From Escherichia coli O157:H7 (lineage in GTDB: Bacteria > Pseudomonadota > Gammaproteobacteria > Enterobacterales > Enterobacteriaceae), in NCBI RefSeq assembly GCF_013167455.1, contig NZ_CP038328.1: DNA of 64,000 nt. One strand, given 5' to 3'. This document shows positions 58,001-61,000 of the stretch, piece after piece. Position numbers: made by a program. The number at the start of each line of letters is the position of its first letter. Position 1 is the first letter of the stretch.

Positions 58001-61000
58001 TTGCTGAAGGCAGCAAGCTGGACAAAGCCGCGAAAATTCGCGCATTCACCAACTATCTGCCTGGCTTCAACATCCCTATGCTGCCTCGCGAGCTTTCTGA
58101 CGATCTCTGCTCACTGCGCGCCAATGAAGTCCGCCCGGTACTGGCATGCCGCATGACGCTCTCCGCTGATGGCACCATTGAAGATAATATCGAATTCTTT
58201 GCCGCCACCATCGAATCCAAAGCGAAGCTGGTGTATGACCAGGTTTCTGACTGGCTGGAGAATACCGGTGACTGGCAGCCTGAAAGTGAAGCAATTGCCG
58301 AACAAGTCCGTTTGCTAGCGCAAATTTGCCAACGCCGCGGCGAGTGGCGTCATAACCACGCACTGGTGTTTAAAGATCGCCCGGATTACCGCTTTATTCT
58401 CGGTGAAAAAGGTGAAGTGCTGGATATCGTCGCCGAGCCTCGTCGCATTGCCAACCGTATCGTCGAAGAAGCGATGATTGCCGCTAACATTTGTGCAGCT
58501 CGCGTACTGCGCGATAAGCTCGGTTTTGGTATCTATAACGTGCATATGGGCTTTGATCCGGCGAATGCCGACGCGCTGGCAGCGTTGCTGAAAACGCACG
58601 GTCTGCATGTCGATGCCGAAGAAGTGCTCACGCTGGACGGTTTCTGCAAACTGCGTCGTGAACTGGATGCGCAACCAACTGGTTTCCTCGACAGCCGCAT
58701 TCGTCGCTTCCAGTCATTTGCTGAAATTAGCACTGAACCCGGTCCTCACTTTGGCCTCGGTCTGGAAGCATACGCCACCTGGACTTCGCCGATCCGTAAA
58801 TATGGCGACATGATCAACCACCGTCTGCTGAAAGCGGTTATCAAAGGCGAAACTGCGACGCGTCCACAGGATGAAATCACTGTCCAAATGGCCGAGCGTC
58901 GCCGTCTCAATCGGATGGCAGAACGTGATGTTGGTGACTGGTTATACGCACGCTTCCTGAAAGACAAAGCCGGGACCGACACCCGTTTCGCAGCGGAAAT
59001 TGTCGATATCAGCCGTGGCGGCATGCGTGTTCGTTTGGTTGATAACGGCGCTATCGCCTTTATTCCTGCACCTTTCTTACACGCTGTGCGCGATGAACTG
59101 GTTTGCAGCCAGGAAAACGGCACCGTACAAATTAAAGGTGAAACGGTTTATAAAGTAACTGACGTTATTGACGTCACCATTGCCGAAGTCCGCATGGAAA
59201 CCCGCAGCATTATTGCGCGCCCGGTCGCGTAATCTCCTTTCACGGCCCATTCCTTATGAATGGGCCGTTTATTTCCCCGCTCTACCTTCATCATATCCCG
59301 GCAGTTTTTTAACTGACTTTCGTTTGAAAACTGGCGTTTTTCCAAAACTAGATTACAAATAAATATATAAAAAAAACAATGTGTTTAGCCGCCGTTAATT
59401 TCATGTAAGTCATGTTGTTCCTTTTATTTAACCGCGGACTCCGCTGTTAACCGGAGGATATGCATCATGAAAACCGTTAGGGAGTCCACAACGTTGTACA
59501 ACTTTCTCGGATCGCACAATCCATACTGGCGGTTGACGGAAAGCAGCGATGTTTTGCGCTTTTCTACCACCGAAACCACAGAACCTGAACGTACGTTGCA
59601 GTTATCTGCCGAACAGGCTGCTCGCATCAGGGAAATGACGGTCATCACCTCCAGCCTGATGATGAGTCTGACCGTCGATGAGAGCGATCTTTCTGTGCAT
59701 CTGGTAGGACGAAAAATCAATAAACGGGAATGGGCTGGCAACGCGTCTGCATGGCATGACACACCAGCAGTTGCTCGTGATTTATCACACGGACTTTCCT
59801 TTGCTGAGCAGGTAGTTTCTGAAGCACATTCCGCAATAGTGATTCTCGACAGCCGGGGGAATATCCAACGCTTCAATCGGTTATGTGAAGATTACACAGG
59901 GTTGAACGAACACGACGTCATTGGCCAAAGCGTGTTTAAACTGTTTATGAGCCGTCGTGAAGCTGCGGCATCCAGGCGCAATAACCGTGTATTTTTTCGA
60001 AGCGGCAATGCATATGAAGTCGAACTGTGGATACCAACACGTAAAGGCCAGCGGCTGTTTCTGTTTCGCAATAAATTTGTCCACAGCGGCAGTGGCAAAA
60101 ACGAGATTTTTTTAATCTGTTCCGGCACCGACATTACCGAAGAGCGCCGCGCTCAGGAACGACTGCGTATTCTGGCAAATACCGACAGTATCACCGGACT
60201 GCCGAATCGTAACGCAATGCAGGAGTTAATCGATCACGCTATTAATCAGGCAGATAACAATAAAGTTGGGGTCGTGTATCTTGATTTGGATAATTTTAAA
60301 AAGGTCAACGACGCCTATGGGCATTTATTTGGTGACCAGTTATTACGCGACGTGTCATTGGCTATTTTAAGCTGTCTCGAACATGACCAGGTGTTGGCGC
60401 GTCCAGGTGGCGATGAGTTTCTGGTACTGGCATCCAACACCTCACAAAGCGCGCTGGAAGCAATGGCATCACGAATTTTGACCCGCTTACGGCTCCCCTT
60501 TCGCATTGGTTTAATTGAAGTTTATACCAGCTGTTCAGTAGGTATTGCACTCTCTCCCGAACATGGTTCGGACAGCGCGGCTATTATTCGTCACGCCGAC
60601 ACAGCAATGTACACAGCAAAGGAAGGCGGACGAGGACAATTTTGCGTTTTTACCCCAGAAATGAATCAACGGGTATTTGAATATCTCTGGCTGGATACCA
60701 ACTTGCGTAAAGCACTGGAAAACGATCAGTTGGTTATTCACTATCAACCCAAAATCACCTAGCGTGGCGAAGTGCGCAGTCTGGAAGCACTAGTACGTTG
60801 GCAGTCACCTGAACGTGGGTTGATTCCACCGTTGGACTTCATTTCCTACGCAGAAGAGTCAGGGCTAATTGTGCCTTTAGGCCGTTGGGTGATTCTCGAT
60901 GTCGTACGCCAGGTGGCGAAGTGGCGGGATAAAGGCATTAACCTGCGAGTGGCGGTAAACATTTCTGCACGTCAGCTCGCCGATCAAACCATTTTCACCG

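Follow-up and report, generated by a model that had tools for sequence, protein, structure and literature searches.

How does a regulator of biofilm formation come to be cut by the same stop codon, at an identical position, in unrelated lineages of Escherichia coli, and does the loss matter wherever it is found? The question is raised by pdeR (yciR/gmr) in a 64,000-nucleotide stretch of DNA from E. coli O157:H7 (contig NZ_CP038328.1 of the RefSeq assembly GCF_013167455.1; hereafter the window), where an amber codon stands in place of the tryptophan codon 432. PdeR is a trigger phosphodiesterase that restrains CsgD and curli production (Lindenberg 2013, EMBO J, PMC3715855): it keeps DgcM and MlrA bound and inhibited until the cyclic di-GMP (c-di-GMP) made by DgcE fills its EAL site (Hengge 2016). 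Both sources agree with the role ascribed to it in the original prediction, made from this DNA alone, that singled out the codon. As the likely account we propose that this allele, W432amber, is a genuine and recent nonsense allele of a small O157:H7 clone, that it arose at a Dcm-methylation hotspot and that it is probably near-neutral in this background.

The conceptual pdeR frame runs from an ATG at 59467 to a TAA at 61450-61452 and, by Pfam analysis of its 661-residue product, codes for the PAS, GGDEF and EAL domains in a single frame that has one internal stop (...HYQPKIT*RGEVRSLEALVRW...); around it the plus strand reads ATC ACC TAG CGT GGC GAA GTG. Against the intact pdeR of the O157:H7 strain FRIK1989 only one base differs (60761 G>A), and the gene order rnb-pdeR-yciZ-yciT-osmB, with yciH and pyrF further downstream, is that of FRIK1989 and K-12. 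Thus, the amber codon is indeed, as had been claimed, the only interruption of a frame that is otherwise open from its ATG. Its placement between the GGDEF and EAL domains has to be corrected, for the stop lies 20 residues inside the EAL domain, directly after LVIHYQPKIT and eight codons ahead of the E440-A-L motif (60784-60792). The exact position leaves the practical outcome as it had been foreseen: the EAL motif and all catalytic residues are lost from the polypeptide. The trigger function requires the EAL domain on the same uninterrupted polypeptide, and here everything from E440-A-L onward lies past the amber codon. The truncated product keeps an intact GGDEF motif (residues 314-318; 60406-60420), directly upstream of which we found no RxxD motif in the window sequence, and database entries for the exact 431-residue protein are ELW35929.1 (from E. 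coli 3.4880) and EFN9289321.1. The features of the locus are collected in the table below.

Features of the interrupted pdeR locus and of the second amber codon, in ycjN (coordinates in the window)
Feature	Coordinates	Strand	Basis
pdeR (yciR/gmr), conceptually 661 codons, interrupted: pseudogene or split gene	59467..61452	+	synteny, alignment to FRIK1989
Truncated open reading frame, 431-residue PAS-GGDEF fragment	59467..60762	+	translation
PAS region, residues 114-228	59806..60150	+	Pfam PAS/PAS_9
GGDEF domain, residues 237-390	60175..60636	+	Pfam
EAL domain coding region, residues 412-644; stop after the first 20 residues	60700..61398	+	Pfam
Former Dcm site, ancestral CCTGG now CCTAG; position 4 changed, opposite the methylated inner C of bottom-strand CCAGG	60758..60762	+	
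Amber TAG replacing TGG (Trp432); changed base 60761 G>A	60760..60762	+	alignment to FRIK1989
Residual 226-codon open reading frame, GTG start (Val436), remaining EAL domain	60772..61452	+	frame undamaged; listed by gene callers as a separate EAL reading frame
ycjN amber, Gln210 CAG>TAG, at a second Dcm site (K-12 AACCAGGC)	26563..26565	-	annotated 'internal stop' in FRIK1989

The allele is shared by a group of closely related assemblies. From 25851 to 64000 the window aligns without gaps to FRIK1989 over 38,150 bases, with mismatches at three positions (C>T at 29001, C>A at 50882 and G>A at 60761), and on this sequence comparison the chromosome is of the O157:H7 type. A contig of E. coli 3.4880 (AOET01000052.1, GCA_000335195.2) matches the window at 100% from 49467 to 64000 (14.5 kb), including the A at 50882. 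The A at 60761 stands on identical flanks both in that submitter assembly and in the run SRR537018 as assembled independently by Logan, the latter with both single-nucleotide polymorphisms (SNPs), and four more similar contigs carry it as well. Since submitter and independent Logan assemblies agree on this base, it is not an assembly artefact; and since the window, E. coli 3.4880 and SRR537018 have 50882 C>A in common, this SNP, which lies within a frameshifted RND permease pseudogene, marks a clone. The W432amber allele is a property of that small O157:H7 clone, which includes E. coli 3.4880. Among 5,426 complete E. coli genomes, none of the 405 that are O157-like carries it: the top matches of a 201-bp probe all had one mismatch, and a 41-mer probe able to seed only across the TAG matched no O157 genome.

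A single nonsense SNP is by itself statistically unremarkable; it is the position of this one in a Dcm site, together with its recurrence in multiple lineages, that exceeds chance. The ancestral sequence is a CCWGG site, and the change is the transition of its inner C to T, read as G>A on the other strand. The sequence change, this methylation-site context and the recurrence described below are observed directly; deamination as the actual event is what we infer from them. In the ancestral CCTGG the inner C of both strands would have been methylated, and spontaneous deamination of the bottom-strand 5-methylcytosine would have produced a T:G mismatch which, if missed by very-short-patch (Vsr) repair, would leave CCTAG on the top strand and turn TGG into TAG. 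The dcm-vsr pair was found in 5,367 of these 5,426 complete genomes, O157-type strains such as 7784 among them. Dcm sites are the classic hotspots for amber mutations, reportedly described in lacI by Coulondre and Miller in 1978. As in lacI and in natural populations, the inner-C transition of CCWGG in pdeR makes TAG from CAG or TGG and recurs in independent lineages; unlike the lacI hotspots, the case concerns a specific regulatory gene in wild isolates and is known here from sequence alone. The passage of PMC9520237 that quotes Cherry 2018 puts the rate at which the inner C of CCWGG changes to T in natural E. coli at about 8-fold higher.

The window holds a second amber codon with the same mutational signature, in ycjN, which is common to the O157 lineage (O157:H7 genomes annotate an 'internal stop' there). 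The pdeR codon had been said to have the same TGG-like to TAG signature as ycjN. At the level of the codon the likeness fails, as ycjN went from CAG to TAG at Gln210; at the level of the base it stands, for in both genes the change hit a Dcm site (CCAGG or CCTGG) at its methylated inner C. Only six of the 59 transition routes to a stop in pdeR, and four of 30 in ycjN, act on a Dcm-methylated base, so that finding both ambers at such sites (2/2) is unlikely by chance, at roughly 1%. The gene pdeR has eight CCWGG sites, six of them amber-capable, as against 63 of 122 (52%) in 52 neighbouring genes (P = 0.17), or about 3.0 amber-capable sites per kb (6 in 2 kb) as against 1.3 per kb in those genes. 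With this enrichment not significant, a view of pdeR as a "designed contingency locus" is unsupported.

The same change is found repeatedly outside the O157:H7 clone. The 41-mer probe matched 44 complete genomes, all belonging to the O111:H8/NM/H2 clone of enterohaemorrhagic E. coli (EHEC); the same TAG is present in all 44 complete O111 EHEC genomes found. In O111:H- strain 11128 (NC_013364.1) pdeR is annotated with an 'internal stop', and direct alignment reads codon 432 as TAG; PMC5635171 gives TGA for this codon, in conflict with the RefSeq record. By 32 other SNPs, the nearest at gene nucleotides 1284 and 1386, the O111 allele differs from that of the window, so that the O111 TAG is of independent origin. 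The exact O157-type 431-residue product occurs, again with TAG, in a further locus (L003) whose closest complete genomes are non-O157 (O78 strain 3, KV7 and others); a relative of it (L006) has the same product but reaches it through TGA at codon 432, a codon seen this once. The K-12-type 431-residue product was found in seven places, all with TAG, on backgrounds that lie 10-37 SNPs per 6.3 kb apart, except for one pair (L011 and L016) separated by 1 SNP. To these is added, on the statement of the paper, the urosepsis strain B-11870, a uropathogenic E. coli (UPEC), with TAG at the same pdeR position (Cimdins 2017, MicrobiologyOpen, PMC5635171). The tally for codon 432 is thus about 11 backgrounds with TAG and a single one with TGA. 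Each change is a G>A transition, and only the one to TAG lies opposite a methylated base.

A second Dcm site of the gene behaves in a parallel fashion: at Q482 (CAG>TAG in CGCCAGGTG) a real TAG was read in eight of ten places, whereas at tryptophan codons outside Dcm sites a real stop was present in one of ten places for W445 and three of ten for W408, the remainder being contig ends. In these counts, which are uncorrected for phylogeny, the identical change recurs in excess of the neighbouring unmethylated C and of the non-Dcm sites, as is proper to a hotspot; and if the base pair is a hotspot, the identical allele arises repeatedly in unrelated E. coli lineages. The Q482 ambers themselves (loci L038-L045) come from K-12-type backgrounds; the distinct places number at least eight, and one of them is the complete genome CP026827.1.

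The counts were taken from look-ups of the exact truncated products. A full-length PdeR search of a 5.8-billion protein set returned a score-ranked list filled with full-length orthologues, from which the spectrum of truncation lengths was uninformative. Of the possible truncated products, four of six for Dcm sites and two of four for non-Dcm tryptophans were on record in the O157 background, numbers too small to interpret; in the K-12 background ten of ten were on record, many as partial proteins at contig ends or from K-12-like contigs of 62,436 bp. Because such partial proteins and laboratory-like contigs were among the matches, the test of presence or absence was dropped and the loci themselves were read instead. 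Three of the 62,436-bp K-12-like contigs (L016, L018 and L028, from the Logan assemblies of SRR33848594, SRR13976603 and SRR6112141) have nonsense changes at pdeR W432, W445 and W408, respectively. Laboratory mutagenesis or mutation-accumulation lines are their probable source, and counts from databases are confounded by them. One apparent carrier, L007 (GCA_013053165.1), was rejected, its contig stopping one base short of the mutated position; the end of this contig (AATPRY010000055.1, also L053) one base before the site might be a coincidence or be due to a mixed population, with TGG and TAG, at which the assembly graph broke. Many metagenome contigs likewise end precisely at pdeR codons 408 and 445. 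A further difference between the alleles lies in the lost part of the protein: at residue 565 (61159-61161) the O157-type PdeR has Ala in place of Gly in a conserved EAL motif (DDFGTAYSS versus DDFGTGYSS), the Gly being kept in L003, L006, K-12 and O111.

What would the truncation do? Translation is expected to end 20 residues into the EAL domain and to yield a PAS-GGDEF fragment devoid of the phosphodiesterase site. Also missing from it would be the EAL surface through which DgcM and MlrA are bound and inhibited, and with that surface the c-di-GMP-sensing trigger function. In K-12 the EAL domain of YciR makes the strongest contact to the N-terminal domain of YdaM (DgcM) and MlrA's C-terminal domain, and its GGDEF domain has a weak, normally cryptic cyclase activity; an EAL-deleted YciR still somewhat reduces csgB::lacZ expression (PMC3715855). 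In a pdeR null mutant, CsgD and curli reach very high levels and have lost their response to c-di-GMP (Hengge 2016). The closest natural precedent is B-11870, whose truncated YciR, when overexpressed, raises the red, dry and rough (rdar) morphotype and CsgD at 28 C in a cyclase-like manner, and whose TAG>TGG revertant regains repression; the same paper equates the stop position with that of O111 11128 and mentions neither Dcm nor a hotspot (PMC5635171). The fragment could, then, act as a weak diguanylate cyclase, and by analogy with these proteins the product of the amber allele is not simply a null but may add slightly to the c-di-GMP pool.

These precedents differ from the window in ways that bear on the comparison. 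The B-11870 allele shares with it the TGG>TAG change, the retained N-terminal sensor and intact GGDEF domain, and the removal of the EAL domain; unlike the window, B-11870 is a phylogroup B2 UPEC with nine other substitutions in the GGDEF fragment and a working CsgD pathway. The O111:H8/H- pseudogene, as in 11128, has the identical TAG at codon 432 but in a K-12-like pdeR allele and throughout a clone in which it is fixed; in O157 the allele is limited to a few assemblies. The engineered yciR/EAL deletions of K-12 (PMC3715855) likewise remove, with the EAL domain, both the phosphodiesterase activity and the main DgcM/MlrA contacts; the natural fragment, in contrast, keeps the first 20 residues of the EAL domain, and the background in which it occurs usually has a disrupted mlrA.

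This last point determines what may be expected in O157:H7. Where MlrA, RpoS and csgD are intact, loss of the EAL domain would de-repress CsgD, curli and cellulose. Published surveys found a prophage in mlrA in 53 of 55 O157:H7 strains (about 96%) and rpoS lesions in 40 of 55, and O111 strains were found mostly to retain an intact mlrA; EDL933 makes no CsgD, owing to its mlrA prophage (Richter 2014). With mlrA disrupted in about 96% of O157:H7 strains, a rise in curli from the pdeR amber is doubtful here. In a typical O157:H7 strain with the mlrA prophage the output would be blocked downstream, and the amber codon would probably amount to near-neutral decay of an already uncoupled module. Going by these surveys of other strains, its effect is probably masked in the O157:H7 background, changing little. 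The expectation that loss of PdeR should raise matrix production therefore holds for the natural allele where it has been studied, as it loses repression of rdar and CsgD (Cimdins 2017), and does not carry over as it stands, for it needs intact MlrA and RpoS and is probably masked in O157:H7.

Several other explanations of the codon can be set against this account. That the base is an error of sequencing or assembly, the true base being G and pdeR intact, might be suggested by a single-base difference in a rare clone represented by no complete O157 genome. It is nevertheless scarcely credible given the same base in the submitter and Logan assemblies and four further contigs, along with the clone SNP at 50882, and the thorough documentation of the identical allele in other lineages. 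We regard as equally improbable an import of the TAG by homologous recombination from a carrier lineage such as O111. The allele does occur in co-occurring cattle EHEC lineages, but the window keeps O157-specific bases at gene nucleotides 1284 and 1386, i.e., at -11 and +91 nucleotides from the TAG, leaving less than 102 bp for any imported tract, and its pdeR differs from the intact O157 gene at this one base only. Those flanking bases effectively refute recombination from O111 and exclude import for practical purposes. It is also very unlikely, if slightly less so, that pdeR remains functional through amber suppression or read-through, or through re-initiation at the GTG at 60772 to give an active EAL protein. 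A UAG followed by C is a comparatively leaky stop context, and the downstream 226-codon frame is undamaged with its GTG four codons past the stop. On the other side, ARAGORN found no tRNA gene, and hence no suppressor tRNA with a CUA anticodon, within the 64-kb window, and suppressors are rare in natural isolates. No Shine-Dalgarno match precedes the GTG (-2.0 kcal/mol as against -9.5 at the native pdeR start), which makes expression of the 226-codon frame doubtful, and its product would begin only 24 residues into the Pfam EAL match. Moreover, the cloned B-11870 gene, comprising the internal TAG and the downstream part, behaved like a cyclase and acted as a repressor only once the TAG had been reverted.

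Selection deserves more weight. On a reading in line with the matrix increase foreseen in the original prediction, the truncation is an adaptive loss or conversion, under positive selection in this lineage for higher c-di-GMP, CsgD, curli and biofilm or for relief from a cost. The increased rdar and CsgD conferred by the B-11870 allele, the very high curli of pdeR null mutants, the presence of the allele in all 44 complete genomes of an O111 EHEC clone with mostly intact mlrA and its persistence in several unrelated backgrounds speak for it. Yet the strong asymmetry of TAG over TGA at codon 432 and the parallel recurrence at Q482 are predicted by mutation bias and not by selection for truncation; the absence of the allele from the 405 O157-like complete genomes shows that no sweep took place; and most O157:H7 strains are without functional MlrA, and often without RpoS, so that the proposed benefit would be blocked. 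We consider adaptive loss improbable for this clone, if less so than the three explanations above. A combined version, in which the dense in-frame Dcm sites repeatedly convert PdeR into a stand-alone diguanylate cyclase that selection then keeps (in EHEC O111, some UPEC and the O157 clone), with pdeR as a contingency-like biofilm locus shaped by mutation-bias parallel evolution, seems to us somewhat less probable still.

Several considerations weigh against our own proposal of a near-neutral allele from a Dcm hotspot. The recurrence count is ascertained on codon 432 and lacks phylogenetic normalisation, and some of the K-12-type backgrounds, with nearly identical pdeR sequences, could share the allele by recombination. 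The methylation of the pdeR site and a dcm+ genotype of the strain, whose dcm locus lies outside the window, are presumed. As regards mlrA, rpoS and csgD in this strain, "near-neutral" is a prior from surveys and not a result. Finally, positive selection would equally account for a fixed allele throughout the O111 EHEC clone and for its persistence in several lineages, and these data do not tell mutation bias from selection; the O111 fixation, with mlrA usually intact there, leaves room for selection in some lineages.

The remainder of the window has its own history. Positions 1-25850 are a Mu-like prophage, with genes for a tape measure protein, a DUF935 portal and a tail sheath, inserted 29 nucleotides into ycjO (junction 25850/25851), a gene that FRIK1989 has intact. 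Copies at differing sites in other O157/O111 genomes share 99% identity with this prophage, which also matches regions labelled 'inserted Bacteriophage Mu-like phage'. Pseudogenes annotated in FRIK1989 as lineage-wide include ycjM, an RND efflux permease and an alpha/beta hydrolase, all three frameshifted; the pseudogene regions lie at about 27206-28884 and 49756-52858 of the window and, in relatives, at the counterpart of L001 6624-7554. The remaining mismatch to FRIK1989, 29001 C>T, falls between ycjM and pspE.

The W432amber allele is thus a known, experimentally characterised and recurrent nonsense allele, of which the occurrence in the O157:H7 lineage is new, and the case adds no new kind of mechanism. 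What it adds most usefully is a reason for the recurrence of the pdeR amber, and for the ycjN amber, which is most likely the deamination of 5-methylcytosine at CCWGG. For O157:H7, E. coli 3.4880 and its relatives form a small clone, marked by the allele, with a genetically broken c-di-GMP switch for curli and cellulose; the persistence of this clone on surfaces could be affected if it has or regains a functional mlrA, for instance by prophage excision. More generally, it furnishes a natural example of methylation-driven mutation bias yielding the same regulatory loss-of-function allele in unrelated pathogens. As mutation bias can yield identical alleles, the identity of nonsense changes across lineages should not be taken to indicate selection or recombination before a check for CCWGG has been made.

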